Below the pieces are notes generated by a model that made no database searches, was not told the DNA's origin, and worked only from the letters and a program-made list of their open reading frames with translations. Positions 1,684-29,149 of a DNA stretch of 32,000 nucleotides are shown one piece after another. Numbering within the stretch: position 1 is the first letter of the stretch; each line of letters starts with the position of its first letter. The stretch spans positions 2,850,001 to 2,882,000 of the forward strand of contig JALDRA010000001.1 of NCBI GenBank assembly GCA_031316235.1, read 5' to 3'. The position numbers were made by a program, and so were the translations under genes. Origin of the DNA: Candidatus Scalindua sp. (GTDB taxonomy: Bacteria; Planctomycetota; Brocadiia; Brocadiales; Scalinduaceae).

Positions 1684-3711
1684 TTACGCTGCAAGCGCTG
1701 CCTCTTTGATTCCACTTACGTCCAATATTAATCCGACCTTTCCATCACCCAGTATTGCACCACCTGAAATACCTTTGACGCCTTTAAATGTGTCCCCGAG
1801 ACTTTTTATGACAACCTGCTGCTGGCCTAACAGTTCGTCAACCAGTATGCTGAATTTCCCTTCTTCAGTTTCCACAATTACAACGATAGCTTCCCATGGA
1901 TTTGTCTTTTTCGTATCAATATTGTAAAGCTTATGGAGACGAACAAGAGGAAAGAGATTCCCTCTCATATTCACGACTTCCCCCTGATTCTTTATGGTAC
2001 TGATTTCTTCCTTTCTGGGACGTAACGATTCTGAGATGGAAATAGTTGGTATAATGTATTTGGTGCTGCCTACGTTGACTACTATTCCATCAATGATTGC
2101 AAGGGTGAGCGGGAGTTTGATGGTAAATGTGGAGCCCTTCCCCTCTTCTGATGTTACGTCGATCTTACCACGAAGTTTTTCGATGTTCTTCTTCACTACA
2201 TCCATGCCTACTCCACGGCCTGAAATATTAGTGATCTTTTCTGCTGTAGACAGACCCGGTGAGAAGATTAGATTGTATATCTGGTTGTCACTCATTACAG
2301 AATGTTCTTTAACGAGGCCTTTATCTATGGCTTTATTAAGTATCTTCTCCTTCTGCAGCCCTGTGCCATCGTCCTCTATTTGTATTATAATATTTCCTCC
2401 CTTGTGATAGGCGCTCAGCTTAACTGCTCCTTTTTTTCTCTTACCACTGGCAATCCTCTTCTCTTCCGATTCAATTCCGTGATCTACCGAGTTTCTTAAG
2501 ATGTGAACGAGTGGGTCTGCGATTACTTCAATGACGTTCTTGTCAAGTTCAGTATCCTCACCTGAGATTATGAGCTCTACCTCTTTATTCGCATGCATGG
2601 ATACATCTCTAACCAGTCTCGACATCTTCTGAAATGTCTGTTTTAGTGAAACCATTCTCATAGACATTACCTGATCTTGAATATCCTTGGTTATCTTACT
2701 CAGGTGAGAGAGATTTTTGTTCGACCCATTCTCATTGTTACAGCCGTACTTCAGATCTCCTGATATCAAGGTGTTTGCTATTACCAGTTCACCCACGAGA
2801 TCAAACAGGTTGTCGAGTTTGTCTGTATCAACTTTAACGGTTCTCGATTGTTCTTTTCTGGCCTGTCGAGTTTTCAGTGCATCTTCTATATTTTCTTGCG
2901 TTGTAACTCCATTATCTACTAATATCTCCCCGACTTTACGTTTTTGTTCTTTTATGGCCTCTTGGAGTTGTTGCTCTGTAAGAGTGCCGTTTTTGACAAG
3001 AATTTCTCCTACAGGCTTCCACAGACTCCTTTTTTGCTCTTCGATAGCCTTGTCGATAAAATCCTGGGATACTGTTCCATTTTCTATGAGGATCTCACCC
3101 AGCTTTCTGCCTTTTTCTTTGAGAGCCGTATCAAGTTGTTCCTGAGTGATAATGGAATTTCTTACCAAGAATTCACCAATATGTTCATTCTCAGTGATAT
3201 GGTCTTCTCTTTTATATTGTGCGGACTGTGGTTGAGTATCTGTTTCTCCATTAAGCATGGTTAATATGCGGTTAATGATTGGTTGTATGTCTACTGATTG
3301 CTCATGTGTGGAAGACGCTGCATCGTCTTTTCCTCTTAATGTCATATCTACTTTGACAGAAAGAGTATCTCTGAGTGTCCTGAGAATATCAATTGAGTCG
3401 AGACATAAGGTTGTTATTTTCTTGGTAAATGGTATTTCACCCTTCCTTGCCTTATCAAGCAGTGTTTCAAGTTCATGACTGAGTCTCTGAATATCGGTGA
3501 GCCCCAGGAATCCAGCACTTCCCTTTATGCTGTGGATGCTTCTGAATATGGCATTGATCAGTTCATAGTCCAGGTTCTCATTGTCAATACTGAGAATATT
3601 GCTTTCTGACTCTTCAAGATGGTCTTGTACCTCAGACAGAAACTCCAGGAATATCTCCGAATCATCCTTAATATCAAGTGTAAATTCATTGGTCTCCGGG
3701 TTGCCGTTCAT
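1684..3711 (-). CDS. cheA: Chemotaxis histidine kinase CheA with an atypical insert of T2SSE_N/MshEN-like repeats between P1 and P3
   Basis: HPt P1 with phospho-His (IHSIKGSAGFLGL). P3 dimerisation segment (VKVDTDKLDNLFDLVGELVI). HATPase N box (HILRNSVDHGIE), G1 (DDGTGL) and G2 (GRGVGMDVV). C-terminal CheW-like P5. Residues 177-283 are four LGEILxxNG-type repeats instead of a recognisable P2. Confidence 0.95.
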   Translation of the reverse strand: MNGNPETNEFTLDIKDDSEIFLEFLSEVQDHLEESESNILSIDNENLDYELINAIFRSIHSIKGSAGFLGLTDIQRLSHELETLLDKARKGEIPFTKKITTLCLDSIDILRTLRDTLSVKVDMTLRGKDDAASSTHEQSVDIQPIINRILTMLNGETDTQPQSAQYKREDHITENEHIGEFLVRNSIITQEQLDTALKEKGRKLGEILIENGTVSQDFIDKAIEEQKRSLWKPVGEILVKNGTLTEQQLQEAIKEQKRKVGEILVDNGVTTQENIEDALKTRQARKEQSRTVKVDTDKLDNLFDLVGELVIANTLISGDLKYGCNNENGSNKNLSHLSKITKDIQDQVMSMRMVSLKQTFQKMSRLVRDVSMHANKEVELIISGEDTELDKNVIEVIADPLVHILRNSVDHGIESEEKRIASGKRKKGAVKLSAYHKGGNIIIQIEDDGTGLQKEKILNKAIDKGLVKEHSVMSDNQIYNLIFSPGLSTAEKITNISGRGVGMDVVKKNIEKLRGKIDVTSEEGKGSTFTIKLPLTLAIIDGIVVNVGSTKYIIPTISISESLRPRKEEISTIKNQGEVVNMRGNLFPLVRLHKLYNIDTKKTNPWEAIVVIVETEEGKFSILVDELLGQQQVVIKSLGDTFKGVKGISGGAILGDGKVGLILDVSGIKEAALAA

Positions 3712-3728
3712 TTGATCTGGCTCCTTCC

Positions 3729-5924: not shown

Positions 5925-5970
5925 CTGTTTTTCTCCTTCAATTAAATGGTATTAGGTGGTGGATTTCGAT

Positions 5971-6008
5971 AACCAGTTACTCCAGATAATAATCTGCAGT
6001 AACTGGTT
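5971..6008. other. Perfect 11-bp inverted repeat (AACCAGTTACT / AGTAACTGGTT, 16-nt loop) between the CheC-like/REC gene and the MCP gene
   Basis: Read directly: 5971-5981 is the exact reverse complement of 5998-6008. A T-run (GTTTTT) follows on the plus strand only, so it is not a canonical intrinsic terminator for the minus-strand operon. Confidence 0.6.
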
Positions 6009-6086
6009 GTTTTTCACAATAAGTTAAAATGATACTATATGTACAATCGATGTGACGGGTAATAAGACGAACTCACCTGTTCTTTA

Positions 6087-7082: not shown

Positions 7083-7145
7083 ATCTTTTTCAATAACGAT
7101 AAACCTGAAATATTTGGTTTAATTTGAGTTGTCTTTTATCAGCTT

Positions 7146-7688
7146 TTAACTTTTTTCGTGGTTTATTTTCATGCCGACATGAAAAGTACCTTCCGCTGAT
7201 GAAAAAGGAAATATCACCCACATGTTCTGATTATTAGCAGGTTTCACGTACAAAGGGGAGTGCGTGCACTCTCCATTTTCTCTGCTTGAAGATGAAATGG
7301 TCATATCGGTTCCTGCAACTACTAAAGGGACCGCTAAATGCATTGTCCCAAGATCGGTGTAAACTCTATTTTTCAAATTGCCCGCAATCATATTTGTTAC
7401 TTCTCCAATGGCATCTTTGGTGTCATGGTCTAGTTCAAAAGTATCAATTCCCAACATGAGAGACGTGATCTTGAGTGCGATTTTCCTGCTGCAGAACAGA
7501 GCGATAATGCCGGAATGTTCACCCGAAAAACTGACCAGAGACATGACCTCTTCCTGAATATCTTTTTCCTCGCGGTTAAACACTTTTCCAGACTTTATTT
7601 CCAAAGGTATCATTGTAGAAAATATTTCATACGTGGAATCTATAATTTCTTTTTCAACCGTCTCAAATAATGTTGATGTCGTTTTCAT
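7146..7688 (-). CDS. cheX: CheY-P phosphatase CheX
   Basis: 180 aa. Single CheC-family active-site motif DAIGEVTNMIAGN (D92-x3-E96-x2-N99) followed by Pro about 22 residues later (HLAVPLVV). Size and single-site layout fit CheX. Lies between cheY and the CheC-like fusion. Confidence 0.85.
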   Translation of the reverse strand: MKTTSTLFETVEKEIIDSTYEIFSTMIPLEIKSGKVFNREEKDIQEEVMSLVSFSGEHSGIIALFCSRKIALKITSLMLGIDTFELDHDTKDAIGEVTNMIAGNLKNRVYTDLGTMHLAVPLVVAGTDMTISSSSRENGECTHSPLYVKPANNQNMWVIFPFSSAEGTFHVGMKINHEKS

Positions 7689-7815
7689 TTAATATCTCCG
7701 CTGTATCGCCGAATAGCAGTAAGTATTTTTTATAATAACGTATGAACAAGCAGATTTATACTGTTAGAGAGTACGGACGTTGTCTTTTTTGGAAAAAACA
7801 GAAAATATGTATTAA

Positions 7816-8193
7816 TCAGTTTATCATGAGATATTTACCAAGTGTATCTCTTAGCTGTGCAGCAGTAAATGGTTTGGTAATATAATCGTTGGCTCCACTA
7901 TCCTTTGCTTCTGTCTTTTTTGCATCTGATCCTTCGGTAGTCACCATAACAACTGGTATCTTCCTGGGAAGATTTAATGACCGCAGTGTCTTTACAAATT
8001 CTATACCCGACATAGTAGGCATGTTCCAATCGCATAAAATTAAATCCAATTCATTTGCAGAGACTTTTTCCAGGGCCTGTGCCCCATCTCCGGCTTCTAC
8101 AAATTCATTAACAATTAAGCCTGATTCTTTTATGTTCCTTTGTATTATCTTTCTCATTACAGCTGAATCGTCAACCAATAGGACTTTTGACAT
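7816..8193 (-). CDS. cheY: Chemotaxis response regulator CheY
   Basis: 125-aa stand-alone receiver: VLLVDDSAVMRK, DLILCDWNMPTMSG (acceptor Asp), VVMVTTEG, YITKPF. Confidence 0.95.
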   Translation of the reverse strand: MSKVLLVDDSAVMRKIIQRNIKESGLIVNEFVEAGDGAQALEKVSANELDLILCDWNMPTMSGIEFVKTLRSLNLPRKIPVVMVTTEGSDAKKTEAKDSGANDYITKPFTAAQLRDTLGKYLMIN

Positions 8194-9211: not shown

Positions 9212-9267
9212 TTGTGTGTGGTTCAGTTATTCATTTCTTACTATTTGCTGAATAGGAGGTGTTTATA

Positions 9268-9597
9268 ATGCCAATAGAAAGTGTTTCTCATGTAGGTCAT
9301 GGGTTGATTGACAGTATTAAGGGTGACAATGCTCTTAAAAAAAATGAAGGAATTAAACCTGTTTCTGGAGTATCTAAGGAGGGACATAACCTTAATGTAG
9401 TCGATAAAGTTGAAATTTCTGAAGAAGTGCAAGGATTACAAAATATGTTGTCGAAGCTTAAGGCTGATCTGGAAAAAGTACCAGATGTGCGTCCTGGAAA
9501 GGTTGAACACGCAAGGAAACGTATGGAAAGCGGATTTTACGATAAACAGGATGTGATTGCCAAGGTTGCTGGAGACATAAAGAAGCTGACAATTTAA
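9268..9597 (+). CDS. flgM: Anti-sigma-28 factor FlgM
   Basis: AGGAGG lies 7 nt upstream of the ATG at 9268; the ORF-track start at 9259 has no RBS. Small, Gly/Lys-rich N-terminus. C-terminal FlgM signature: VDKVEISEE...LEKVPDVRPGKVEHARKRMESGFYDKQDVIAKVAGDI. Confidence 0.8.
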   Translation: MPIESVSHVGHGLIDSIKGDNALKKNEGIKPVSGVSKEGHNLNVVDKVEISEEVQGLQNMLSKLKADLEKVPDVRPGKVEHARKRMESGFYDKQDVIAKVAGDIKKLTI

Positions 9598-10029: not shown

Positions 10030-10081
10030 TGAGTGTATGCTAGTCAAGAATGGAAGTTTTACAGTTTTACCTGATAGGGAA

Positions 10082-11335
10082 ATGGAGACAGTAATGGAAA
10101 ATACGGGAAAGATTCTCTCTCTGTTTGGCATAATCCGGAGTTTTTGCATTGTTGTAACGGTTGTTCCTGTTTTCCTGTTTCCTGTTTCTTCTGAATGTGA
10201 AGCAGGAAAGAAATATAAGATGGTTGTCTTACCATTCCGAGATAATACCTCCATGGATTTCGGGGAGATGGTTTCTGATGTTTTGAGGAGTATGGTAACT
10301 CAAACAAAGTATTTTGAATCTGTGGAGAGAGACAAGATGTATGAGACCATAATCACCGTGTTGCCTAGTAACTTGATAAAAGTGGATAATATAACGAGGA
10401 TAGGGGGTGAATTTACTGCAAACCAGATAGATGTGATTTCCCGTTTGGAGAGAAAAAAGATTCAGAAGGTTTGCAAGAAATTGAGAGCTGACTACGTCAT
10501 AAAGGGTAGTATCTCTCAGGTTGCTGATGTGTTGAGGGTTGATGTTGAGATTATAGATGTCAAGGAAAACGAACTGTTAGGATTTGTTGATGTAGAAGGG
10601 ATGCCTGAAAAATTGTTAACGGGTATGTTGGAAGAGTTGACTGGCAAAATATCACTCTTCTGTAAAAACATAAATTCTTATAATGATGCGCTGTACATTT
10701 TGGGGCAATATAACCAGGGACTGTATACCCTTGATGTGGCGGAAAAAAAACTTAAAGAACTCCTTTCGGGTATTCAAAATTCAATTGGAATACGGGCAGT
10801 ACTCATGACGCTCTATCTGTCGGAAAATTCAAAAATACAATTCCGATCACTACAACAGGATAGCTTTTCTGAAATAGGTGACAAGATAACGGGAGAGGGG
10901 GAAGAAATTTTGAAACTTTTACAGAACAGGTATGATGAAAAAGTTCTTGAAGTATTTCTCTCTATGGGTCTTGATCCTTTTAAAGAAGTTGCAAATATTT
11001 ATGTAAAGAGAGGTGATACCAAAAAAGCCATTGACATATACCGCAAGGCAATTAGAGTCTACCCGATAAATCTCGCTGAACACTATACAGAAATTGGGAG
11101 GTTGTATAACAGACAAGGTATGGACAGTGAGGCTATACAGGCTTTTGAAATGGCATTGGAAATAAATAGTAGTAATAATGAATTACGCTTAGTCTTGGCA
11201 GGATTATTAAAGAAAAACAGATTTCCAGAAAGAGCACGGAATCATCTTGAAGTGTGCATGAAATATGCAAGGAATGCTGAGGAAATTGAGCATGTCAGGG
11301 AAGAGATTAGCAAATTGCCGGTTTCCGTTCAGTAG
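10082..11335 (+). CDS. Exported protein: N-terminal alpha/beta domain resembling the TolB_N/CsgG/LpoB/FlgO-type fold, plus C-terminal TPR repeats
   Basis: Signal-peptide-like N-terminus (ILSLFGIIRSFCIVVTVVPVFLFPV). KMVVLPFRDNTS...GEMVSDVLRSMV...YFESVERDKM...ADYVIKGSISQVADVLRVDVEIIDVKENELLG is the pattern of that periplasmic domain class. The C-terminus is TPR-like (KAIDIYRKAIRVYPINLAEHYTEIGRLYNRQGMDSEAIQAFEMALEIN). Start chosen at 10082 (AGGGA RBS); 10094 is also possible. Confidence 0.8.
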   Translation: METVMENTGKILSLFGIIRSFCIVVTVVPVFLFPVSSECEAGKKYKMVVLPFRDNTSMDFGEMVSDVLRSMVTQTKYFESVERDKMYETIITVLPSNLIKVDNITRIGGEFTANQIDVISRLERKKIQKVCKKLRADYVIKGSISQVADVLRVDVEIIDVKENELLGFVDVEGMPEKLLTGMLEELTGKISLFCKNINSYNDALYILGQYNQGLYTLDVAEKKLKELLSGIQNSIGIRAVLMTLYLSENSKIQFRSLQQDSFSEIGDKITGEGEEILKLLQNRYDEKVLEVFLSMGLDPFKEVANIYVKRGDTKKAIDIYRKAIRVYPINLAEHYTEIGRLYNRQGMDSEAIQAFEMALEINSSNNELRLVLAGLLKKNRFPERARNHLEVCMKYARNAEEIEHVREEISKLPVSVQ

Positions 11336-11619: not shown

Positions 11620-13017
11620 ATGAGTGACAGTAAGAGCGGTCATGAGACTGGAAGTCAGGCAGGAGTAAAGCCAGTAATCCTTGTAGTTGATGATGAGGAA
11701 ACCATCAGGTCCTGTTTAAAAGAGGCTCTGGAGGGAGAGGGTTATAAGGTCTATATCGAAGAGAATGGGAAAAATTCCTTAAGTTTAATAAAGAGGGTGG
11801 TTCCTGATTTAGTTTTGGTGGATTTAAAAATGCCGGGTATGAATGGTATTGATCTGTTGAGAGAGGTAAAATCTCTTGATCGGAATATCCTCGTAATTCT
11901 TTTAACCGGGCATGGTTCTGTTGATACAGCGGTAACTGCTATTAAGGCGGGCGCCTTTGATTATTTGGAGAAACCCTTTAAAATCGAGCATATCAAGGTC
12001 GTTGTCGGTAAGGCCTTAAGTACTCAATCTTTAATGAGGGAAGTGATAAGGCTCAGGGAAAAAGCTGGTGTTATTGGGATTGAAAATGTAATTGCTGTCA
12101 GTAAAGAGATGAAGAAGGTCTTTGAACATGTCAAAATAATAGCGGAAAGCCCATCAAGCACGGTATTGATCCAGGGGGAGAGTGGAACAGGAAAAGAATT
12201 GATTGCGAATTATATCCATACGATGAGTTCTCGGAGTAATTACAGATTTGTTGATATAAATTGTGCTGCTTTGACAGAAAATTTGCTTGAAGCTGAGTTG
12301 TTTGGTTATGAAAAAGGAGCTTTTACGGGTGCTTCTTCAACAGGTAAGTCCGGTTTGTTTGAGGTCGCACAAAGGGGATCTATATTTCTTGATGAGATAG
12401 GTGAAATGAGTATGCCCTTACAGGCTAAATTATTAAGGGCATTACAGGAAAAGAGGTTCAAAAGGGTGGGGGGCATAGATGATATAGATGTGGATGTGAG
12501 GATAATAGCCTCAACCAATAGAAATTTGGAAGAAGAAGTGGATAAAGGTCAATTTAGAAAGGATCTCTACTATCGCTTAAAAGTTTTACCCGTGTATTTA
12601 TATCCTCTGAGGGAGAGGAAGGATGATATTGTTCCTCTTGCAAAATCCTTTGTGCACAAGTTTAATAACGAATTTAAAAAGAAGGTCAATACTATAACCT
12701 CGGAAATAGAAGGAATCCTGGTGAATTATGATTGGCCTGGTAATGTCAGAGAATTAAAAAACGTGGTAGAACGGGCAGTTCTCCTTTCAAGCACAAACAC
12801 GCTTTCTGCTGAGCATATATTATTAGGGAATGTATTTAGTAAGAAAAATGAGGCTGAAGATACGATAACAGATCTCTCTATTTCTGCTGTCGAGCAGAAA
12901 CATATAACGAAAATCCTTAAGGAAACATCATGGAGAATGACAAAAGCTGCTAAAATTCTGGGTATCAACCGTACCACTTTATACAACAAGATTAAGCAAT
13001 ATAATTTAAAACAGTGA
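11620..13017 (+). CDS. Sigma54-dependent response regulator (NtrC family: REC + AAA+ + Fis-type HTH)
   Basis: REC with DLVLVDLKMPGMNG. Walker A GESGTGKE. Sigma54-contact loop EKGAFTGAS. WPGNVRELKN. C-terminal HTH MTKAAKILGINRTTLYNKIKQY. GGAGG lies 10 nt upstream. Confidence 0.95.
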   Translation: MSDSKSGHETGSQAGVKPVILVVDDEETIRSCLKEALEGEGYKVYIEENGKNSLSLIKRVVPDLVLVDLKMPGMNGIDLLREVKSLDRNILVILLTGHGSVDTAVTAIKAGAFDYLEKPFKIEHIKVVVGKALSTQSLMREVIRLREKAGVIGIENVIAVSKEMKKVFEHVKIIAESPSSTVLIQGESGTGKELIANYIHTMSSRSNYRFVDINCAALTENLLEAELFGYEKGAFTGASSTGKSGLFEVAQRGSIFLDEIGEMSMPLQAKLLRALQEKRFKRVGGIDDIDVDVRIIASTNRNLEEEVDKGQFRKDLYYRLKVLPVYLYPLRERKDDIVPLAKSFVHKFNNEFKKKVNTITSEIEGILVNYDWPGNVRELKNVVERAVLLSSTNTLSAEHILLGNVFSKKNEAEDTITDLSISAVEQKHITKILKETSWRMTKAAKILGINRTTLYNKIKQYNLKQ

Positions 13018-13073: not shown

Positions 13074-13185
13074 TATACTAAAACCGATCTGGTTTTCGGT
13101 TTTACCGGAAACCAGATCTTGGTGAAGGTATACTCGCTCAAATTTATCTCGGATTTTATCCGAAATCCATTATGAGATGAGTATA
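13074..13185 (+). repeat. Bipartite palindromic element, copy 2 (reference copy, 112 bp: 59-bp module A + 53-bp module B)
   Basis: Module A: TATACTAAAACC-GATCTGGTTTTCGG-TTTTA-CCGGAAACCAGATC-TTGGTGAAGGTATA. Module B: CTCGCTCAAATTTATCTCGGATTTTATCCGAAATCCATTATGAGATGAGTATA. The copy ends 11 nt before the RBS of the gene at 13208. Confidence 0.9.
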
Positions 13186-13207
13186 CAAGCCCACAAAAGG
13201 AGATGAT

Positions 13208-13690
13208 GTGGAGGTATTTGAAAAAAAACTGGGAGAGATCTTGATTGATGAAGGGAAAGTCTGTTTGGAGGATGTGAAATCTGCTTTATCAATCCAAAAA
13301 AAAAGTTCTCAGCATAAACTTTTAGGTGGAATCTTAATCGAGCTAAGTTTGATTTCAAAGGATGATTTGGCTCTTGCGTTGAATAGGCAGCTTCTGTATA
13401 CATCAGAAACAAATGCGTTGGGTCTGGATTTAAGTGATGATGATAGAATTAAGAAAATTGCAGATAAATATCGGGGATCTGAATATTTTGAAGAGTTAAA
13501 CGAGTTGATTGGTGTGATAACTCACAAGATACGCAATCCATTGTCCGGTATTTCTGCTGCCGTTGAGGTTCTTCGAGAAAAAGTTGGGGTCAGCGATGTA
13601 AATGAAAAGTTCTTTAAGATGATTTTTAAAGAAATAGATAGTTTGGAAAAAGTAGCAAAAAATCTTTTCAGGGAATTTTCTCACAAGTAA
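13208..13690 (+). CDS. Small signalling protein: N-terminal T2SSE_N/MshEN-like domain plus a HisKA (DHp) module with H-box, no ATPase domain
   Basis: GTG start 5 nt after AAAGGAG. KLGEILIDEGKVCLEDVKSALSIQ and LLGGILIELSLISKDDLALALNRQ fit the 24-residue MshEN motif. LIGVITHKIRNPLSGISAAVEVL is a HisKA H-box. The protein ends at 160 aa with no N, G1 or G2 boxes. Confidence 0.8.
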   Translation: MEVFEKKLGEILIDEGKVCLEDVKSALSIQKKSSQHKLLGGILIELSLISKDDLALALNRQLLYTSETNALGLDLSDDDRIKKIADKYRGSEYFEELNELIGVITHKIRNPLSGISAAVEVLREKVGVSDVNEKFFKMIFKEIDSLEKVAKNLFREFSHK

Positions 13691-13715: not shown

Positions 13716-14855
13716 ATGAACTTCAGAATTCTGTTGGTGGATGACGAGGAAACGCTCAGGTCTGTTTTACAAGAGACCCTGGCTGGAGAAGGCTATAGTG
13801 TTGATGTCGCAAATGATGGCTTTCAGGCTCTGGAACGTTTCAAGATCACATCATATGATTTACTTATTACCGATGTAAGGATGCAAGGCATGGATGGTTT
13901 ACAACTTATCCGTGAGATTAAGAAAAATGGCCTGCCGGTAAATGTTATTATGATTACCGCATACGGTTCTGGAGAGGCTATAAAAGAAGCAATGCGGCTG
14001 GGTGTTGTGGAATTATTTAATAAACCATTTAAACTGCAGGAAATAAAAGACGCAATAACGAGAATACTGAACCGTATTTTGCATGAAAAAGGAAAGAATT
14101 CCATTTCTTCAAGAGCAGAAAACCGTGAAGAACTATCCATAGCAGATTCTCTTTTGGTACCTGCAGGTTTGTCGTATTATGTAGGAGTACCGGGAAATCA
14201 ACAATGGAATACAGCAGTTTTTGATTTTGTTGCCAGAAACAGTAAAAAGGCTTTGGCCATATTTGGAAATATTCATAGCAGGGCTGAAAGGCCTGGTGAA
14301 TGGTGGGATAACAGGCAGATAACAATAATGATTCAGACTCTCTTTAGGTCTAATATGAAGAGTACTCCAAGAAAAATTGTATCGGTAATTAATGATTTTC
14401 TGTCGAGAAATATTTTTCCGCATGTTGAGGTTTCAATACTCTGTCTTCTGGTAGATGTGAAAAAGAGTGAGATCCGGTATGTACATTATGGAAGCAATCT
14501 GGTGTGTTCTGTTTTTTCTCCCGGTGGGAAGATTGAAATCTTGGAATCCTGTCCTGTTTTGCTGGGTGTATCTCCAGGGGTTGAAATATGCGAGAGTTCG
14601 ATGACATATGGTGATGAAAACCAACTGATGTTGCTGGGTTGCAATTCGATAACAAGTGTTGCAGAAAGAGAGTCGCTTTTGAGACAAGCAGTTGATGTCG
14701 TTTTGTTGTCAACGAGATATAATCAAAGAATACAATTGAATAAGGAAGCCTTCAGATCACGGATTGCGAATAAGAAAGAGGCAGACTTTGATGATGAAAC
14801 GTACGTATTGATGAATCTTGATTGGGATGATACCGTGAGTTTCGCACAAAACTAA
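13716..14855 (+). CDS. Response-regulator receiver fused to a degenerate SpoIIE/PP2C-like domain
   Basis: REC: ILLVDDEETLR, DLLITDVRMQGMDG, VIMITAYG, LFNKPF. The C-terminal half aligns by eye to SpoIIE blocks: VFDFV...LAIFGNIHSR; VSILCLLVDVKKSEIRYVHYGSN; PVLLGVSPG...GDENQLMLLGCNS. The usual DVSGHG and TDG Asp residues are absent. Start taken at ATG 13716; the ORF-track TTG at 13701 is possible. Confidence 0.8.
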   Translation: MNFRILLVDDEETLRSVLQETLAGEGYSVDVANDGFQALERFKITSYDLLITDVRMQGMDGLQLIREIKKNGLPVNVIMITAYGSGEAIKEAMRLGVVELFNKPFKLQEIKDAITRILNRILHEKGKNSISSRAENREELSIADSLLVPAGLSYYVGVPGNQQWNTAVFDFVARNSKKALAIFGNIHSRAERPGEWWDNRQITIMIQTLFRSNMKSTPRKIVSVINDFLSRNIFPHVEVSILCLLVDVKKSEIRYVHYGSNLVCSVFSPGGKIEILESCPVLLGVSPGVEICESSMTYGDENQLMLLGCNSITSVAERESLLRQAVDVVLLSTRYNQRIQLNKEAFRSRIANKKEADFDDETYVLMNLDWDDTVSFAQN

Positions 14856-14984
14856 AAGAAAAGATACACTCAAAAGTGATAGATAAAGGTGCAGGATTCA
14901 GTATTGCATTCCTTTGAAGATTTACCCTCAATGCCTCAATTTGGGTTTGGTTTGATGTTGTGAGTGGAAAAGAGGAATTACGGG

Positions 14985-15755
14985 ATGCTTAAATTCATAC
15001 CTGAAAGACTTCGGCGTATACCAGGAAAGTGCAAATCTGTTCCGGGAAGGTTGGATTCCTTTATACAGGGTACCGGTGGATATAAGGTATTTGTCTACAT
15101 AAATCTTGCAATCTTATCATTGATCGTTGTGCTTATCTTGCTGCAACAGAGTTGGATTAATAAAGAAAAGAAGGCCATAACGGATATAGTAAATGTGCAC
15201 AATATTGACAATGTTCAGAAGAAAGATGAAGCTGCAGAGATGTCGAGTGGATCGCACAGTGGTATCGCGCAAGAAGAACTGCATTCCATCGATGAATTAC
15301 AGCTTACCATAAAGAAAAAGATAAAAGAAGCTGATCTCTATTTTGTCTATGAGCAGTATGATAAGGCTGCACCGATTTATGAAGAGTTATCTGCAGCAAA
15401 GAATTTTTTTGATGAAAAGGATAAGGTGCTTAACAATCTTGCCGAAAGTTATTTTTGTTTGGGTAATTTTGAACTTGCTATGGAAACATATCGGAAGCTA
15501 TTGAACGATTATTTTAATACACCTTACAGGTTGAATGCTCAATTAGGAGAAGGGAAGTGCCTGATTCATTTAAGTAAATTTGGTGAAGCACGTAGAGTTT
15601 TATACCTACTGGTTGCCAAGGAGGCAGATTATGATGGGGAAGATGATAAAGCGAAGATTATAGAAGCGTATTATAACATTGCAGAAAGTTATATAGCACA
15701 AGCAATGGAACATAAGGATAAAGGCCGGGTAATTAGTAATCATGAAAATTTGTAA
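14985..15755 (+). CDS. Membrane-anchored TPR-like protein
   Basis: ATG lies 8 nt after AGAGGA; the ORF-track GTG at 14964 is less likely. One TM segment (VFVYINLAILSLIVVLILL), then TPR-like helices (ADLYFVYEQYDKAAPIYEEL, NLAESYFCLGNFELAMETYRKLL). Lies 12 nt from the next gene. Confidence 0.75.
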   Translation: MLKFIPERLRRIPGKCKSVPGRLDSFIQGTGGYKVFVYINLAILSLIVVLILLQQSWINKEKKAITDIVNVHNIDNVQKKDEAAEMSSGSHSGIAQEELHSIDELQLTIKKKIKEADLYFVYEQYDKAAPIYEELSAAKNFFDEKDKVLNNLAESYFCLGNFELAMETYRKLLNDYFNTPYRLNAQLGEGKCLIHLSKFGEARRVLYLLVAKEADYDGEDDKAKIIEAYYNIAESYIAQAMEHKDKGRVISNHENL

Positions 15756-15766
15756 AGAATAAGTAC

Positions 15767-17485
15767 ATGAAAATAGAAAACGCATCTCCTTTTTTTGTGT
15801 TGTTGATTTTTATTCTCTTTATAGGATTTGGGAAAGATTGCGGTGCAGGTGTTCGAAACGAAAAAAGGGATCATTTGTCAACACCTGTCGGAAATGTGGA
15901 TGAAAAAAGATTAGTGTTTGAAAAGAAACTCTTGGAAGGATTGATGAAGTTGTTAGACTTGAAACAGCACGAGATTGTTCCTGATAAGCAAAAGACAGCT
16001 GAACGAATTATTAAAAATGAAAATCTGTTCGTTAAGAGAGAAGTCAATGATAGAGGAATAGTGCTTTATACCGTGAATGCACAATTTGTACCCATCAATG
16101 ATATATTAGAGGCAATTGCTTCCTATAGCGGGAGAAAGATTTTCATAGATGAGGATATTGGGGAGAAGACAATGACTACCGTTGTTTCTGTCTCTTTAGA
16201 GAATACCCCGTTTTCAGACATAATGGAGATCATTATCGGATCAAGCGGTCTTGAGTCGATAGTAAGCGATGACATTGTCATTGTCACATTACCAGCCAAA
16301 CTGGATGTCGTTTCTGCTTATGATTATTATAAGGAAAAGGCCGTACAGGTCTATCAGATGGCAATGATTAAATATCCAGATTATGAGAACATTGCAGATG
16401 CGTATTTTGAGCTTGGAGATTTTTATCTGGCTGCAGGCCTTCCAACGATTGCATTACAAGAGTTCCAAATCATTCTGGAAAAATACAAAGGGTATCCGAA
16501 AGGAAACATATCGATGTATAACATCGCTAAATGTTATGAATTGCTTGGCGATACTGAAAATGCATTAAAAAGTTACCTGATGTATGCAAAAAAATATCCG
16601 AGAGATGCTAATGTTGGTGATGCCTATCTTAAAGCCGGTGATTTGTGGAGAAAACAAAATGAGTATCAAAAGGCTATTGAAATCTTTAAATATATCATTT
16701 CTGAGTTTCAAGGGAAAGATATTGCAAGGGTTGCAGAGTTGCGTTTAGGATATACGTACATTGACAATGAAGACTATGTTTCTGCATTGAAGTTATTCAC
16801 GGAGATGAAAGAGAGAGAATTGTTTCGTGACTTTCACAATGAGATCGAATATCAAATGGGGAACTGCTGCTATCTGATGGGTGAGTATTCCAAAGCAATT
16901 GACATATTAAATAAATTTATCATGTATAATGAAGGAAATGAGCTTCTCGTTGATGCGTATTATAAACTGGCGGATTGTTTTTTTAAACTTGAGGAATATC
17001 TAGCGGCATTTCAATTATATAAAGGTGCTCTCTCGGAATTTAATGAAAGCAGTTTAGCACCCTATGGTTACCTGCATTGTGGAATATCCCTGCGCAAGTT
17101 GAAGATGTTTGAAAATGCTGCAAAAATTCTTAGAGAAGGATTCCGCCTCTATCCGGACAATGTATACACGGGAAGTATGAAATTTGAGATGGCCCTATGT
17201 TATTACGAGGATGGAAATTTCAAGCGTGCTTTTGATGTTTTCGAAAGCATTACCCAGGACACATCAAACAGCTCTTTTGCTGTTGAGGCTAATATGTATG
17301 CTGGTATCTGCCTTAGCGGGGAAAAGCAGTATCAGAGAGCATTGGAATTCTATCAAAAGGCACTCGATGCAGCACCCGCCATGGAAGAGAGGGAGTGGAT
17401 ATTTAGTTTAATAGGCGATTGTTATACTGAACTTGGTGAATTGGCCAATGCGGTAAAGGCATATCAACAAGAGTTTCCTCGATAA
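15767..17485 (+). CDS. Exported protein with an STN/secretin-N0-like domain followed by a long TPR array
   Basis: N-terminal hydrophobic segment (FFVLLIFILFIGFG). VNAQFVPINDILEAIASYSGRKIFIDEDI...VSVSLENTPFSDIMEIIIGSSGLESIVSDDIVIVT matches the STN/secretin N-terminal pattern. Then at least 8 TPR/YbgF-like repeats (e.g. ADAYFELGDFYLAAGLPTIALQEFQIILEKYKGYP). Confidence 0.8.
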   Translation: MKIENASPFFVLLIFILFIGFGKDCGAGVRNEKRDHLSTPVGNVDEKRLVFEKKLLEGLMKLLDLKQHEIVPDKQKTAERIIKNENLFVKREVNDRGIVLYTVNAQFVPINDILEAIASYSGRKIFIDEDIGEKTMTTVVSVSLENTPFSDIMEIIIGSSGLESIVSDDIVIVTLPAKLDVVSAYDYYKEKAVQVYQMAMIKYPDYENIADAYFELGDFYLAAGLPTIALQEFQIILEKYKGYPKGNISMYNIAKCYELLGDTENALKSYLMYAKKYPRDANVGDAYLKAGDLWRKQNEYQKAIEIFKYIISEFQGKDIARVAELRLGYTYIDNEDYVSALKLFTEMKERELFRDFHNEIEYQMGNCCYLMGEYSKAIDILNKFIMYNEGNELLVDAYYKLADCFFKLEEYLAAFQLYKGALSEFNESSLAPYGYLHCGISLRKLKMFENAAKILREGFRLYPDNVYTGSMKFEMALCYYEDGNFKRAFDVFESITQDTSNSSFAVEANMYAGICLSGEKQYQRALEFYQKALDAAPAMEEREWIFSLIGDCYTELGELANAVKAYQQEFPR

Positions 17486-17883
17486 GACAAATCCTGAAAT
17501 TTTTCCTGCCCGGTGTGATGAATAGCAGGGTTAACATTTTTTTTCATGATTAGGCAGGTTGTGAATAAAATGAACAGATCGTATAAAAAACCGGCGGGTA
17601 ATTCTCCGTAAACGTACACTTCTTTTTCCTTCCAAATATTTTTGATCAGGAGTACTGCTAACGGTTTCCCGGTTAAAAATGTTGTTTGACGATTGCTACC
17701 ATTTTCTTATTCAGGCCTGCTGTTTTATTACATCCTGTCTGCTTTGTTATTTGCATCATTAACTCGTTCCGTCCAATCTCCATCATCTGCTACGTATCGA
17801 AGGTAATATTTTTCCGTCATGAAGTTTCCGGTATATGTGTATATGCTGATTTGTTTATAGAGGCTGTTCTTCACCCCTGTTAG

Positions 17884-17898
17884 TGGCACTAAGTTTGC
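17884..17898 (+). promoter_or_regulatory. Sigma54 promoter (consensus-perfect core) for the 18079-20093 operon
   Basis: TGGCAC-TAAGT-TTGCG is a full match to TGGCAC-N5-TTGC. A 10-base match is expected well under once by chance in this window. It is intergenic and correctly oriented. The predicted start is near 17910. Confidence 0.6.
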
Positions 17899-17932
17899 GG
17901 GAATATGTTGTCTGTTCTTCTCTTCTGGAAAG

Positions 17933-18046
17933 TATACTCATCTCATAATGGTTTTCGGATAAAATCCGAGAAAAAACTGAGCGAGTATACCTTCACCAAG
18001 ATCTGGTTTCCGGTAAAACCGAAAACCAGATCTTGGTGAAGGTATA
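17933..18046 (-). repeat. Bipartite palindromic element, copy 3 (inverted orientation; module A symmetrised into a 28-bp-arm palindrome)
   Basis: Module B (rc) occupies 17933-17989. Positions 17986-18046 read TATACCTTCACCAAGATCTGGTTTCCGG-TAAAA-CCGAAAACCAGATCTTGGTGAAGGTATA. The arms are complementary at 27 of 28 positions. Confidence 0.9.
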
Positions 18047-18078
18047 TAAAAAACAGTATGTAACTTTTATTTGTTTCC

Positions 18079-18831
18079 ATGAATAGTAAATTACGAATTA
18101 CTGGTATGATTTCTTTTGGCTTGTTTCAGTTTTTTTCGTCTTCATATCTCTTTGGTGAATTTGAGACGAAGAAGAGTGATCAATCTCAGGCGGAGAATGA
18201 AAGCGCTCTGGAAGAAAAATATAGTGAAGAAGAGCTGGAGATAGAGAAGATGGCGAATAGGCTGAAAGAGGAGAAAAAAGAATTAGAAAAGCTCAAGATT
18301 AAGTTTGATAAGGTAAGTAAAAAGGGTAAGCAGAGGAATAGGTCTGAGGGTGAAGCCGGAAAAGATTTCAAGGATGAATCAATGAGTATTGCTGGAGAAA
18401 ATATACCGAGAGATCAGCTAATTTCTCTCTTCGGTCACCGTGAAGAAGAAAAGGTCCCCGATAAAGCTGATCGGAATATGGTTGTTGGAGAAAATAAAAA
18501 AGAAAAAATTATCATAAAGGATAAAGACAAAATCGTACAACCTTTCGAAATCGCCGAAAACCTTTATAAAATGGAAGAGTATCAGTTGTCCCTGGATATT
18601 TATAAATTAATAAAGGTAGAAGAGGCAGAGGAGAACGGATCCTGGATAAAATATCAGATTGCGAATTGTTATAGAAATTTAAAACAATTTGATAAGGCGG
18701 TGGAAATGTACAAAGAGGTCGACAAAGAGTTTGAAGGTTCATATTGGGCGAAACAGTCGCAATGGTATATACAGGATATAGAGTGGCGTAAAGAGATAGA
18801 TGGTAAAATAAAAGCGGTTGTTGAAAAATGA
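18079..18831 (+). CDS. Exported coiled-coil (Lys/Glu-rich) protein with a C-terminal TPR-like motif
   Basis: Signal-like N-terminus (ITGMISFGLFQFFSSSYLFG). EEKYSEEELEIEKMANRLKEEKKELEKLKIKFDK coiled coil. The C-terminus NLYKMEEYQLSLDIYKLI...IANCYRNLKQFDKAVEMYKEV is TPR-like. Its stop overlaps the next ATG (ATGA). Confidence 0.75.
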   Translation: MNSKLRITGMISFGLFQFFSSSYLFGEFETKKSDQSQAENESALEEKYSEEELEIEKMANRLKEEKKELEKLKIKFDKVSKKGKQRNRSEGEAGKDFKDESMSIAGENIPRDQLISLFGHREEEKVPDKADRNMVVGENKKEKIIIKDKDKIVQPFEIAENLYKMEEYQLSLDIYKLIKVEEAEENGSWIKYQIANCYRNLKQFDKAVEMYKEVDKEFEGSYWAKQSQWYIQDIEWRKEIDGKIKAVVEK

Positions 18832-20093
18832 AAAATGTAAATTCTCAAATCGTGAGGAATAAAAAACAGAATAAGATGTCAGATCTTTCAGTAATATTCG
18901 ACAGCTTCAATTCTAATGCGTTGAAGTTGGAGGCATCTTATAAGCAGCTTCAGGGCAGGATAAGAGAAATAGATCGTGAGATGGCTCAAGCAAATGAATG
19001 TCTCAATAAGAAAGTTCAGGAGTTGAATAAATTAACCAGATACCTCAACAGTGTACTTGAAAGTATGTACTGTGGTGTTGTAGCCATAGATATGGATGGT
19101 AGAATTGAAACTTTTAACAAGTCTGCAGAGAAAATTCTACAGGTGAAAGCGAGTAACGTTTTAGGTAAAAGTATTCAAAACGCCTTAGCTCAAACCAATG
19201 GTTTCAACGATCTGCTGCTCAAATCCCTGTCAACGAAAAAAAATGTATTTAATCAGAAAAGAGTCATAGCGTTAAAAGATGGAAACTCAAGATATTTAGA
19301 GAGTAGTGTCACAATCCTGCAGGACAAGTATGGTATTGTTACCGGCCTTGTGGAAATATTTCAGGATTTATCTGAGATTCGCGAATTGAAGGGGCGTTTG
19401 TACAGTGTTAACGATCTCATTTCAGTCGGTACGATGGCTGCAAGTATTGCACATGAAATAAGAAATCCGCTGAATGGTATTGCAGGCTTTGCCTGCTTAC
19501 TACAAAAAGAGTTGAAGGGGAAAAATCTCAAACTTGTAGATTATATTATCCTGGGTACAAAAAACATTAACAAGATCGTGTCAGATCTGTTGCTCCTTGC
19601 CCGGCCAATTACATTAAACTTGAGAAGCTGTCTGCTGTCAGATGTTTTAGATAGAAGTCTGGTTCTTGTATCACAAGAGTCAAGGAAAAGAGAAGATAAA
19701 AATATTCAAATCAAGAAAAAATACATGCTTAGAAACAACAATATTGTCTGTGATCCCGAACGTTTGCAGCAAGCATTTCTCAACATAATTCTTAATGCTA
19801 TTCAAGCAATGCATGAAGGTGGAGAGCTCACGGTATTTACTCAGGAATTATCAGAGGATGGTTTTTGTGGAGTACAGATTGGCTTTTCAGATACGGGTGA
19901 AGGTATCAGTAATGATTCTATGAAAAATGTATTCGAACCATTTTTTACTACGAAGACCGATGGAACAGGTCTTGGTTTAATGGTAGTTCGCAAGATTATC
20001 GAACTCCATGGAGGTGAAATTTCTATTGAGAGTGAAAAGGAAAAAGGTTCTACCATATTGCTGACATTACCCGAAATCCCAAATGAAATGTAA
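18828..20093 (+). CDS. Cytoplasmic PAS sensor histidine kinase (FlrB/FleS-like)
   Basis: No TM segment. PAS (LESMYCGVVAIDMDGRIETFNKSAEKIL). H-box AHEIRNPLNGIAGF. N box LNIILNAIQAM. G1 FSDTGEGI. G2 GTGLGLMVVRKIIELHGG. Confidence 0.93.
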   Translation: MKNVNSQIVRNKKQNKMSDLSVIFDSFNSNALKLEASYKQLQGRIREIDREMAQANECLNKKVQELNKLTRYLNSVLESMYCGVVAIDMDGRIETFNKSAEKILQVKASNVLGKSIQNALAQTNGFNDLLLKSLSTKKNVFNQKRVIALKDGNSRYLESSVTILQDKYGIVTGLVEIFQDLSEIRELKGRLYSVNDLISVGTMAASIAHEIRNPLNGIAGFACLLQKELKGKNLKLVDYIILGTKNINKIVSDLLLLARPITLNLRSCLLSDVLDRSLVLVSQESRKREDKNIQIKKKYMLRNNNIVCDPERLQQAFLNIILNAIQAMHEGGELTVFTQELSEDGFCGVQIGFSDTGEGISNDSMKNVFEPFFTTKTDGTGLGLMVVRKIIELHGGEISIESEKEKGSTILLTLPEIPNEM

Positions 20094-20232: not shown

Positions 20233-20346
20233 TTCCGGAAGTATTTTATCTCGATTTACTGTTCATATTTGAATTCACACTTTGAGTTCTGGTTACCAGG
20301 GGATTGAAATGGATGATGGGAATTTTTATTGCTGGAGGAAAAACAA

Positions 20347-21771
20347 TTGAGGATTGAAAAAATTCTGATAGTAGATGATGATGATTTAAGCAGAAGCTAT
20401 ATAAGTGAGGTTCTGGTGAGGAATGGTTATACGGTAGAAAATGCTGATGACGGCCATAAGGCCATATCCATGATTACTAATACCAGTTATGACATAATTT
20501 TTCTCGATCTGAAGATGCCTGGACTGAGTGGATTGGATGTCCTGAAAAAGATTAAAATGAACAGCAAGGAAGAAACTATTGTTGTCATGATGACAGCATA
20601 TGGCAGCATTGAATCAGCTGTTGAGGCGATGAGAATCGGTGCTTATGATTATGTTATAAAACCATTTTCACTTGATCAGATTGAATTGCTCTTAAAGAGA
20701 GTTCAGGAACGTCAGGATTTGATAGATGAAAACAAGTATTGGCGATCAAGGGTTGATGGCAATGAGGTTCTTTATAAAACGGTAATGAATGAAAGTTCCA
20801 AGATGTATAAGATCTATCAAAATGTAAAGAAGATAGCTCAAAGTAAGGCTAGTGTACTTATTCAGGGTGAAAGTGGAACGGGGAAAGAGTTGATAGCACA
20901 AGCCATTTATTTACAAAGCAACAGATGTAAAGGGCCATTTATAAAGGTTAATTGTGCAGCCTTGTCTGAAAGCCTGCTTGAGAGTGAATTGTTCGGGCAT
21001 GAAAGAGGATCTTTTACAGGGGCTGATGCAAAGAGACTCGGCCGTTTTGAGCTTGCTAACAATGGTACTTTGTTACTTGATGAGATTAGTGAAATCTCTC
21101 AAAAAATTCAATCGAAGCTGTTAAGGGTTTTGGAGGAAGAAGAGTTCGAGAGGGTTGGTGGATCCAAGACTATCAAAGTTGATGTTAGGATTATTGCAAC
21201 GACAAATAGAAATATTCCGCTCGAAATTGAAGAAAACAAGTTTCGTCAGGATCTTTACTTCCGATTAAACGTTATTCCCATTATGATGCCTCCCTTACGG
21301 GAACGAAAAGTGGACATACCGGCACTCGTTGATTATTTTTTAAAAAAATACACTTGTGGTTCAAATGCTTCCGTAAAAGGGATTAGCGATGAGGCAAAAG
21401 ATTTGTTAATCAATTACTATTGGCCGGGTAACGTGAGAGAACTTAAGAATCTGATACACAGATGCGTTGTTATGGTAGATTCGGATATGTTACTTCCTGA
21501 ACATTTTAAAAATATGCTGAATGTTAATTGTGTTCCGAAAGAAAAAGATTTTATATCCGGAAAAACCATTGAAGATCTGGAACGAGTCTTAATTTATAAA
21601 ACACTGAAAGAAACGAATGGTAATAAGACCAAGGCGGCGGAAATACTGGATATAACACCACGGACCCTAAGAAATAAATTAAACAAATATAAGAGTGACA
21701 ATTATCATGGAGTAATTGATGAAGATGTTAATAAGGATGATCCTGTCATCGAGGAAAGTTTTTCCTTCTAG
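20347..21771 (+). CDS. Sigma54-dependent response regulator (NtrC family; FlrC/FleR-like)
   Basis: REC DIIFLDLKMPGLSG. Walker A GESGTGKE. ERGSFTGAD (GAFTGA variant). WPGNVRELKN. HTH KTKAAEILDITPRTLRNKLNKY. Start taken at TTG 20347, 7 nt after GGAGGA; the ORF-track TTG at 20329 is in frame and possible. Confidence 0.93.
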   Translation: MRIEKILIVDDDDLSRSYISEVLVRNGYTVENADDGHKAISMITNTSYDIIFLDLKMPGLSGLDVLKKIKMNSKEETIVVMMTAYGSIESAVEAMRIGAYDYVIKPFSLDQIELLLKRVQERQDLIDENKYWRSRVDGNEVLYKTVMNESSKMYKIYQNVKKIAQSKASVLIQGESGTGKELIAQAIYLQSNRCKGPFIKVNCAALSESLLESELFGHERGSFTGADAKRLGRFELANNGTLLLDEISEISQKIQSKLLRVLEEEEFERVGGSKTIKVDVRIIATTNRNIPLEIEENKFRQDLYFRLNVIPIMMPPLRERKVDIPALVDYFLKKYTCGSNASVKGISDEAKDLLINYYWPGNVRELKNLIHRCVVMVDSDMLLPEHFKNMLNVNCVPKEKDFISGKTIEDLERVLIYKTLKETNGNKTKAAEILDITPRTLRNKLNKYKSDNYHGVIDEDVNKDDPVIEESFSF

Positions 21772-21884: not shown

Positions 21885-21899
21885 TGGTACTTGAGTTGC
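21885..21899 (+). promoter_or_regulatory. Candidate sigma54 promoter upstream of flgB
   Basis: TGGTAC-TTGAG-TTGCG with exact spacing. Caveat: the predicted start site (~21911) lies only ~2 nt before the flgB ATG. Confidence 0.35.
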
Positions 21900-21912
21900 G
21901 TACTTGAAAGTC

Positions 21913-22272: not shown

Positions 22273-22302
22273 GAAATTCCATAAATAAAGGAGAAAGAAA
22301 AT

Positions 22303-22746: not shown

Positions 22747-22751
22747 CAGGT

Positions 22752-23051: not shown

Positions 23052-23452
23052 TCTTTTGTATCACCATATCAAAATGTGAACAACCGTTCATTGCCCGAGA
23101 GTGAAATCGCGGAGCATCTTTCGTCTTTGTTTTAGAAGTAACATGTTATTACAAAATAGTTCAAGCGAGAGACAGCTTTAAAGTGCAGTGTTTAAACAGC
23201 CGTTGTGGATCAATCTCAATGATTACGTTCCGGTACGGAACAGTCAATTTACTCGTCATTTCATTCACCGTATACAAAATTACTAGGCAGCAAGGAACAA
23301 ATGGCTTGAAATTCTATCCTGTTCCGGAAAGAATTCTTCATGCGTGTCCAGCCGGTAACCCTTACCAGACTTCAACATGCAGGCTGGCTGAATTGGGATT
23401 GCAGGCGGCATTACCCGGGGAGGACACTTCCGAACGGTTTCCTACAGGTAGG

Positions 23453-29146: not shown

Positions 29147-29149
29147 GAT

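Follow-up and report, generated by a model that had tools for sequence, protein, structure and literature searches.

A gene at 13208 to 13690 (forward strand) of a 32,000-nucleotide stretch of Candidatus Scalindua sp. (Bacteria; Planctomycetota; Brocadiia; Brocadiales; Scalinduaceae; assembly GCA_031316235.1, contig JALDRA010000001.1, positions 2,850,001 to 2,882,000 of the forward strand; hereafter the window) encodes a 160-residue protein in which an MshEN-type module, of the kind found in the cyclic di-GMP (c-di-GMP) receptors MshE and PilF, is joined to a DHp (HisKA) helical hairpin devoid of the catalytic ATPase (CA, HATPase_c) domain of histidine kinases. The function that we prefer for it, put forward tentatively and somewhat short of being probable, is that of a c-di-GMP-gated, kinase-dead DHp protein that would dephosphorylate receivers of the flagellar cascade. 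A phosphatase is favoured because the CA domain and the acidic residue following the phospho-acceptor His (position H+1) have been lost while the Asn at H+4 is strictly conserved. The gene and its parts are as follows.

13195..13202, forward strand: ribosome-binding site AAAAGGAG, 5 nucleotides ahead of the GTG, read from the sequence
13208..13690, forward strand: MshEN_N plus DHp-only gene, 160 residues, GTG start at 13208 and TAA stop at 13688–13690, from the list of open reading frames and the domain matches
13226..13297, forward strand: MshEN motif I, residues 7–30, KLGEILIDEGKVCLEDVKSALSIQ, from the NF053729 match
13298..13318, forward strand: seven-residue spacer KKSSQHK between the motifs, from the alignment to PilF GSPII-C and MshE
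13319..13390, forward strand: MshEN motif II, residues 38–61, LLGGILIELSLISKDDLALALNRQ, from the NF053729 match and the PDB sequence alignment
13391..13486, forward strand: linker, residues 62–93, variable at 67–73 and followed by a conserved helix at 77–88 (IKKIADKY...)
13487..13678, forward strand: DHp (HisKA) helical hairpin, residues 94–157, from PF00512, AlphaFold2 (AF2) and Foldseek
13517..13552, forward strand: H-box, residues 104–115, ITHKIRNPLSGI, with His106, Lys107 (H+1) and Asn110 (H+4)

The MshEN-type module and the DHp hairpin

The tandem pair of MshEN-type motifs that an initial annotation had read from the sequence letters at residues 7–30 and 38–61, with seven residues between them, is supported by profile, sequence and fold matches. 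The NCBIfam model NF053729 (c-di-GMP_motif, MshE-related) aligns over positions 1–53 of its 53 to residues 7–61, with 41.0 bits (E 1.2e-10) against a curated cut-off of 38 bits. In a phmmer search of the PDB, residues 6–61 align ungapped to residues 303–358 (GSPII-C) of Thermus thermophilus PilF (E 2.2e-11), and Vibrio cholerae MshE (5HTL) is matched with a two-residue gap (E 2.8e-3). The AF2 model of residues 1–70 (mean predicted local distance difference test score, pLDDT, 88.5) consists of four helices arranged in the four-helix-bundle fold of MshEN_N, and its best PDB matches are the c-di-GMP complexes 5HTL (MshE) and 8PDK (PilF GSPII-B), both with probability 1.00 and with root-mean-square deviations (rmsd) of 1.0–1.1 Å across 55 columns at 36–38% identity. 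All of its top nine PDB matches are MshE or PilF GSPII domains (rmsd 1.0–1.7 Å, TM(query) 0.66–0.72). The ligand site of MshE has been described as two 24-residue motifs, RLGxxhhxxGhhxxxxLxxxLxxQ, with a five-residue joint, and the isolated N-subdomain binds c-di-GMP alone (Wang et al. 2016, PMC5013675). In PilF, GSPII-B (K167/L196) binds c-di-GMP at 6 nM, on the basis of which the consensus has been widened to (R/K/L)LG, and the affinity of GSPII-C for c-di-GMP is similar to the 500 nM of MshEN (PMC11731258).

The ligand-contact positions of these motifs (R, K or L at position 1, L2, G3, L17, L21 and Q24) are occupied in the protein by K-L-G...V...L..Q in motif I and by L-L-G...L...L..Q in motif II, and the first residues of the two motifs, K and L, are the same pair as K167 and L196 of PilF GSPII-B. 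Within the family, L8, G9 and Q30 of motif I are present in all members having the region, L27 is essentially invariant and position 1 is K (36 members) or R (9 members); in motif II, L39, G40, L54 and L58 are essentially invariant, Q61 is present in 47 of 51 and position 1 is Leu. Several features weigh against binding of the nucleotide. Position 11 of motif I is a Lys where the consensus is hydrophobic, and the equivalent change, I19R, is one of the eight found in the non-binding XpsE (PMC5013675); the turn Gly of motif II (position 10) is replaced by N, S or D, both of these positions lying outside the ligand contacts; and the spacer between motifs has seven residues, five being canonical for MshE (a 53-residue unit). 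Moreover, the match to NF053729 lies just 3 bits over the cut-off, and Pfam PF05157 (full MshEN / T2SSE_N), the check that the initial annotation had suggested, gave no match at E<=1, the support for the module coming from the evidence given above instead. PF05157 also models the MshEN_C subdomain, which is absent from the protein, residues 62–93 being a linker that leads into the DHp hairpin.

These same features could indicate an MshEN-like bundle that does not bind c-di-GMP and serves protein-protein contact or dimerisation, as do the N-terminal domains of GspE and XpsE, in which case the protein would be a constitutive DHp phosphatase or a scaffold controlled by its expression only. This is unlikely, although among the alternatives to the preferred function it is the one that survives best. 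Both this Lys (EGKL) and this spacing are also found in PilF GSPII-C, which binds c-di-GMP, so that the seven-residue spacer is probably tolerated; the ligand-contact residues (L-G, the Leu triads and both Gln) are kept across about 50% sequence divergence, and the MshEN part is under purifying selection. Furthermore, enzymes of c-di-GMP metabolism flank the locus in relatives, namely REC-GGDEF cyclases in L014 (59–958 and 8928–9824) and L020 (9159–10052); in L023, a REC-GGDEF-HD_5 protein and an HDOD protein lie near the locus (358–1929 and 1933–2844). Because both Lys 11 and the longer spacer recur in a c-di-GMP-binding domain, binding of c-di-GMP by the N-terminal module is considered likely.

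The second half of the protein matches the Pfam HisKA model PF00512 at residues 97–153 with 39.3 bits (E 6.8e-10), the gathering score being 26.9 bits, as expected from the HisKA H-box that had been noticed in the initial annotation. In the full-length AF2 model (pLDDT 81.6, falling below 50 at residues 67–73), the helix at 77–88 of the linker, where I81, K82 and K87 are conserved in relatives, precedes a hairpin of two helices at 94–125 and 130–157, and the protein ends at residue 160, three residues past the second helix. A Foldseek search with the whole protein gave the DHp domains of ZraS, CpxA and GacS on top, all matches being restricted to the DHp and having weak E-values; the MshEN fold match came from the separate model of residues 1–70. 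No HATPase_c match (the CA domain with its N, G1, F and G2 boxes) was obtained in Pfam and NCBIfam scans of the protein, in agreement with the initial reading that a catalytic ATPase domain is lacking.

The H-box of the family reads T-H-K-[IV]-R-N-P-L. Among 54 distinct relatives, the phospho-acceptor His (His106 here) is present in 53, H+1 is Lys in 53 and Arg in one, never Glu or Asp, and the Asn at H+4 is again present in 53. This Asn is kept where the His has been lost, as in P0026 (His to Tyr) and in the first DHp of P0027 (His to Leu). In four HisKA kinases, the Glu or Asp beside the His has been shown to be needed only for autophosphorylation, and the Thr or Asn at H+4 only for phosphatase activity (Willett and Kirby, PMC3510030), and Asn110 is such a residue. 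For EnvZ and NtrB, the DHp domain in isolation is enough for receiver dephosphorylation (PMC3510030, citing Zhu 2000 and Kramer & Weiss 1999). Since there is no ATP-binding domain and Lys replaces the H+1 acid, the protein, judged from its sequence, is incapable of autophosphorylation.

Conservation and distribution of the gene

The stop codon at 13688–13690, whose genuineness the initial annotation had wanted checked, is real. The C-terminus, ...FSxK, lies at the same place in each of the 54 distinct relatives, including those with no more than about 50% identity, and a word-indexed search gave 26 clusters at 90% identity, 94 to 195 residues long, that all end in this way too. The ratio of nonsynonymous to synonymous substitutions (dN/dS) is about 0.14 overall (0.13–0.15 against three relatives); by part, it amounts to 0.11–0.15 for MshEN and 0.06–0.12 for DHp, and the linker (0.17–0.53) has the highest value of all parts in two of the three comparisons. 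Because of this low dN/dS and the C-terminus common to the relatives, 13208–13690 is a genuine gene under purifying selection. GGAG is found at 13199–13202, five bases 5' of the GTG at 13208, and both the GTG start and the ribosome-binding motif AAAGGAGATGGTGTG are kept in three close relatives (L010, L026 and L011), the remaining upstream spacer not being kept. The closest database match of the protein is 99% identical, and the contig on which this match lies also encodes a protein with 100% identity to the downstream regulator.

Other origins of the short reading frame have been rejected. A truncation or sequencing artefact is contradicted by the like ends of the 90% clusters, the genome copies and the 50% representatives, and by the dN/dS. 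The downstream receiver gene starts (ATG at 13716) 25 nucleotides past the stop in a different frame, and spacers range from about 20 to 180 nucleotides in the loci, which excludes a read-through or frameshifted fusion with that gene; those 25 nucleotides likewise leave no place for a relic CA domain past the stop. Full-length kinase orthologues, named in the initial annotation as the finding that would make this copy a truncation, were looked for and not found. The N-terminally extended Planctomycetota matches L052, L061 and L070 proved to be GAF kinases of the ordinary kind, having AHEVRNPL as well as a CA domain, and the verrucomicrobial matches L027 and L028 are complete kinases of 258 residues.

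The distribution of the family is narrow and restricted to Scalindua-type Brocadiales. In a scan of 185,579 species genomes, full-length copies were found only in metagenome-assembled genomes of this group. A profile search over 1.84 billion representatives gave 5368 matches, comprising two full-length clusters at 50% identity plus fragments and, beyond them, matches to the MshEN part alone; a DHp sub-profile and the H-box pattern, applied to the best 150 of the 5368, revealed no DHp outside the family. Behind the family, the best DHp matches come from full kinases of the usual kind, with AHE[IV]RNPL[AS]GISAA.

Some variants depart from the standard arrangement. In P0027, one MshEN is followed by two tandem DHp modules, the first being the one with the His to Leu change. 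Variants of about 115 residues (P0025, P0026, P0030 and P0038) are without MshEN and have decaying H-boxes (His to Tyr, Asn to Tyr, Pro to Ser), and one of them sits in a different gene neighbourhood.

There is also a gap in annotation, as the gene has been deposited as a clipped hypothetical protein and its relatives have been named as kinases. The NCBI record of the same gene (P0001) is a 149-residue 'hypothetical protein' with an internal start (MIDEGK...) that leaves out window positions 13208–13240, and as a consequence the K-L-G that opens MshEN motif I is clipped off; the JGI label on relatives is 'nitrogen-specific signal transduction histidine kinase'.

Candidate partners and proposed function

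As the initial annotation had stated, the gene lies directly 5' of a receiver gene and between two σ54 activators. The neighbours that bear on its function are the following.

11620..13017, forward strand: NtrC-type σ54 activator EBP1 (REC-AAA+-HTH), from Pfam; candidate target receiver
13716..14855, forward strand: response regulator with REC and a weak SpoIIE/PP2C-like domain, from Pfam (REC 100.8 bits, SpoIIE 26.7 bits); candidate target receiver
18828..20093, forward strand: PAS-HisKA-HATPase_c kinase, from Pfam, with the canonical H-box AHEIRNPL; the only complete non-CheA kinase of the locus
20329..21771, forward strand: second NtrC-type σ54 activator EBP2, just 5' of flgB, from Pfam

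The order EBP1, MshEN-DHp, REC(-PP2C), three tetratricopeptide repeat (TPR) genes, PAS kinase, EBP2 and flgB is kept down to about 50% identity. The initial annotation had put the downstream receiver forward for an interaction test, and a REC gene does follow in 21 of 23 related loci; however, the invariant neighbour is EBP1, which directly precedes the MshEN-DHp gene in each related locus whose flank is long enough, and the whole REC gene is absent in L021 and L023. The downstream gene also varies in form, being a stand-alone 131-residue REC without PP2C in L014 (6606–7001) and L020 (6651–7046), where FliA (σ28) comes next, and a shortened 145-residue REC-only reading frame without PP2C in L011 (6440–6877). 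Even in the window, the SpoIIE/PP2C match of this regulator is weak and partial, and a PDB sequence search with the PP2C-like half gave receiver matches only.

The acceptor Asp is kept in all three receivers (EBP1, the downstream REC and EBP2). The α1 helix is the main DHp docking surface of receivers, and in 20 genomes that of EBP1 and that of the downstream REC are identical at 13–17 of 21 positions, the whole receiver domains being about 39% identical; the α1 helix of EBP2 is distinct, being identical to either of them at 8–11 of 21 (9–10 for EBP1). This pattern points to EBP1 and the downstream REC as likely clients of the MshEN-DHp protein, the PAS kinase probably being paired with EBP2 in a system of its own.

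On these grounds, a sequence of events can be proposed. Binding of c-di-GMP to the four-helix bundle of MshEN_N would be transmitted via the conserved helix 77–88 and the start of DHp helix 1, and would alter the geometry of the dimer or make the DHp more or less accessible. The hairpin would dimerise and dock the phosphorylated receiver of EBP1 (and that of the downstream REC where present), and Asn110 would position a hydrolytic water, leading to hydrolysis of the receiver aspartyl-phosphate. The protein would thus work as a phosphatase, or phosphate drain, dedicated to these receivers and set in its activity by c-di-GMP occupancy, and would link the second messenger to the uppermost level of σ54 control over the flagellar genes, with the receivers more likely being turned off than on. 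A broader claim, namely that stand-alone DHp phosphatases gated by a second messenger constitute a third kind of two-component player beside kinases and phosphatases of the CheZ, CheX and Rap types, is more doubtful; if it were correct, the choice between motile and sessile life would be made by phosphate draining and not by c-di-GMP binding the activator directly.

A few observations speak against this proposal. No kinase for EBP1 or for the downstream REC has been identified, so that a phosphatase would be without a demonstrated source of substrate. The MshEN-DHp gene persists in the two loci where the downstream REC is missing, and therefore this REC cannot be the sole partner. The α1 likeness of the two receivers may be due in part to shared ancestry. 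Finally, a His106 present in nearly all relatives is not strictly needed by a pure phosphatase and fits phosphotransfer equally.

The last point leads to the alternative of a histidine phosphotransferase like Spo0B or ChpT, in which His106 would relay phosphoryl groups between receivers, for instance those of the downstream REC and the σ54 activator, under c-di-GMP control. Besides the conserved His, it would explain the position of the gene between two receiver genes with similar docking helices, and a few kb upstream of the gene the freshwater relatives L014 and L020 both encode a hybrid REC-PAS-HisKA-HATPase_c-REC kinase, the type needing a phosphotransfer step. Nevertheless, such a relay seems improbable. 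In Spo0B and ChpT the His is followed by an acidic residue, and a pseudo-CA α/β domain forms the C-terminus; both are absent here, no sequence existing past the DHp hairpin. No hybrid kinase is found within the Scalindua window, and the downstream REC is missing in the two loci mentioned. In addition, the near-invariant Asn at H+4 is a determinant of phosphatase activity (PMC3510030) and is retained by the variants that have lost the His.

Heterodimerisation is the least favoured of the options that the initial annotation had offered, whereas a phosphatase is the one that the H-box (Lys at H+1, Asn at H+4) supports. In this alternative, the DHp would find its partner in a complete kinase, either the PAS kinase at 18828 or another of the genome, and would act as a RetS-like poison of its autophosphorylation or be phosphorylated in trans as half of a split kinase; c-di-GMP would control the pairing. 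A DHp without CA can in principle form mixed four-helix bundles, with RetS-GacS (PMC8498467) and ChrS-HrrS (PMC9491836) as precedents; the RetS-GacS structure 7N0E is among the fold matches, and the PAS kinase belongs to the conserved locus. Yet this DHp shares only 30% identity with its counterpart in the PAS kinase, differs from it at H+7, H+11 and H+12 (S/A/A vs N/G/F), and is nearer (44–47% identity) to its closest full-length relatives, unrelated small NtrB-like kinases that adjoin NtrC-type activators. Since, moreover, the Lys at H+1 speaks against a substrate of trans-autophosphorylation (PMC3510030), and about 5 kb and three TPR genes separate the gene from the PAS kinase, this pairing is quite improbable.

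Known systems and the wider motility locus

The protein shares with MshE and with PilF GSPII-B and GSPII-C the two tandem 24-residue (R/K/L)LGxxhhxxGhhxxxxLxxxLxxQ motifs and the four-helix bundle (PMC5013675, PMC11731258), combining the K/L first residues of GSPII-B with the spacing of GSPII-C. Unlike MshE and PilF, it is without MshEN_C and ATPase and is fused to a DHp hairpin. The partners that have been reported for MshEN comprise REC, GAF, HD-GYP, cNMP-binding domains, cyclases, Ser/Thr kinase, glycosyltransferase, CheA and CheX, and the text and supplement of that study contain neither 'HisKA' nor 'histidine kinase' (PMC5013675). Similarly, among the titles that a literature search listed, none pointed to a fusion of MshEN with a histidine kinase, and literature searches gave no direct precedent for natural stand-alone DHp proteins. 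A natural, conserved combination of MshEN with a CA-less, kinase-dead DHp was found neither in the accessible literature nor in the sequence searches, and it represents a new domain architecture built from known modules.

On the DHp side, the closest likeness is to bifunctional HisKA kinases of the NtrB, AtoS and ZraS type, with which the protein shares the H-box H-x-[IV]-R-N-P-L-[AS]-G-I-S-A-A and the adjoining NtrC-type activator. In contrast to them, it has no CA and its H+1 residue has changed family-wide from Glu to Lys; with both lost, it cannot be a kinase, and only the phosphatase and docking half of a bifunctional enzyme would be left. DHp modules without CA are also known from the isolated constructs of EnvZ and NtrB and from the CA-frameshifted pseudokinase ChrS (PMC3510030, PMC9491836), the latter still shaping signalling and heterodimerising with its paralogue (PMC9491836). 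These forms, however, are engineered or laboratory-evolved truncations, whereas the protein described here is natural, conserved and has its own sensory module. RetS-GacS is another example of a DHp that acts as an interaction module controlling a different component without autophosphorylating (PMC8498467), although RetS is a large hybrid kinase-like protein and the likeness of the present DHp to that of the local kinase is low. In Caulobacter, c-di-GMP pushes a HisKA protein, CckA, towards phosphatase output (PMC5026420), and a comparable link between c-di-GMP and receiver dephosphorylation is proposed here; CckA is a full hybrid kinase on which c-di-GMP is reported to act by noncovalent cross-linking of domains (PMC5026420), while here MshEN is fused to a kinase-dead DHp.

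The second kinase/activator pair of the locus resembles FleS/FleR or FlrB/FlrC. FleQ and FlrA bind c-di-GMP directly on their AAA+ domain, and phosphorylation of their receiver-like domains is not known; unlike them, the activator EBP1 keeps its phospho-acceptor Asp, and the c-di-GMP module is on a separate DHp protein. What the Scalindua locus would have in common with FleQ and FlrA is a candidate c-di-GMP input atop a σ54-dependent flagellar hierarchy (PMC10723142, PMC9303241). Known routes of c-di-GMP thus involve full kinases, such as CckA (PMC5026420), or direct binding to flagellar σ54 master regulators, such as FleQ and FlrA. If the preferred function is true, a compact and separable route would run through the receiver-docking and phosphatase half of a kinase alone, and the protein would be natural proof of a lone DHp as a regulated signalling enzyme. 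It is also a testable candidate c-di-GMP effector for marine anammox bacteria, in which motility versus aggregation matters both ecologically and technically; as anammox bacteria are not genetically tractable, predictions that can be addressed in vitro are of value. Should the mechanism hold, the H-K-x-R-N H-box and the size of 160 residues would make the protein a candidate c-di-GMP-controlled phosphatase for synthetic circuits.

The remaining genes of the motility locus are as follows.

1079-8193, reverse strand: cheW, cheA, a methyl-accepting chemotaxis protein gene (MCP), a gene for a 331-residue pseudo-receiver protein, cheX and cheY
2851..3180, reverse strand: tandem MshEN-type modules in CheA (1684–3711, reverse strand), residues ~178–287, from NF053729 (94.7 bits, two stretches)
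9259-9597, forward strand: flgM
10037-11335, forward strand: TPR protein
14964-18831, forward strand: three TPR proteins
21904-31623, forward strand: flgB, flgC, fliF, fliG, fliH, fliI, fliJ, motA and motB

The CheA match agrees with the initial claim of two MshEN-like modules in one motility locus. These units lie between the P1/P2 region and the dimerisation domain, and they make CheA a candidate c-di-GMP receptor too; fusions of MshEN with CheA are on record (PMC5013675). In the same che cluster, the 331-residue protein (6087–7082, reverse strand), which is conserved in L001, carries at its C-terminus a receiver in which the phospho-acceptor Asp is replaced by Asn (LMNLTLP), and its N-terminal 200 residues are without Pfam match. 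The four TPR proteins are kept in all relatives examined, and at least two of them seem to have N-terminal hydrophobic segments.

The 190-nucleotide spacer between EBP1 and the MshEN-DHp gene contains a 15-nucleotide inverted repeat (13086–13100 and 13104–13118, forward strand) and, within 13079–13186 (forward strand), a second inverted repeat at 13141–13171 as well as three GTATAC palindromes. These repeats were rejected as a component of the system, as the stretch of about 100 nucleotides is absent or unalignable in L010, L026 and L011. A σ54 promoter directly upstream of 13208–13690 was searched for and not found. In the whole window, 23 σ54-like sites were counted for 17.7 expected, which is not above chance. 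A perfect -24/-12 site, TGGCACTAAGTTTGC, is located at 17884–17898 (forward strand), some 180 nucleotides 5' of the TPR, PAS kinase and EBP2 genes, and near-matches with one and two mismatches are found at 21885–21899 (forward strand) before flgB and at 24040–24054 (forward strand) before fliF, an arrangement that would fit a σ54 cascade in tiers with EBP1 at its head.

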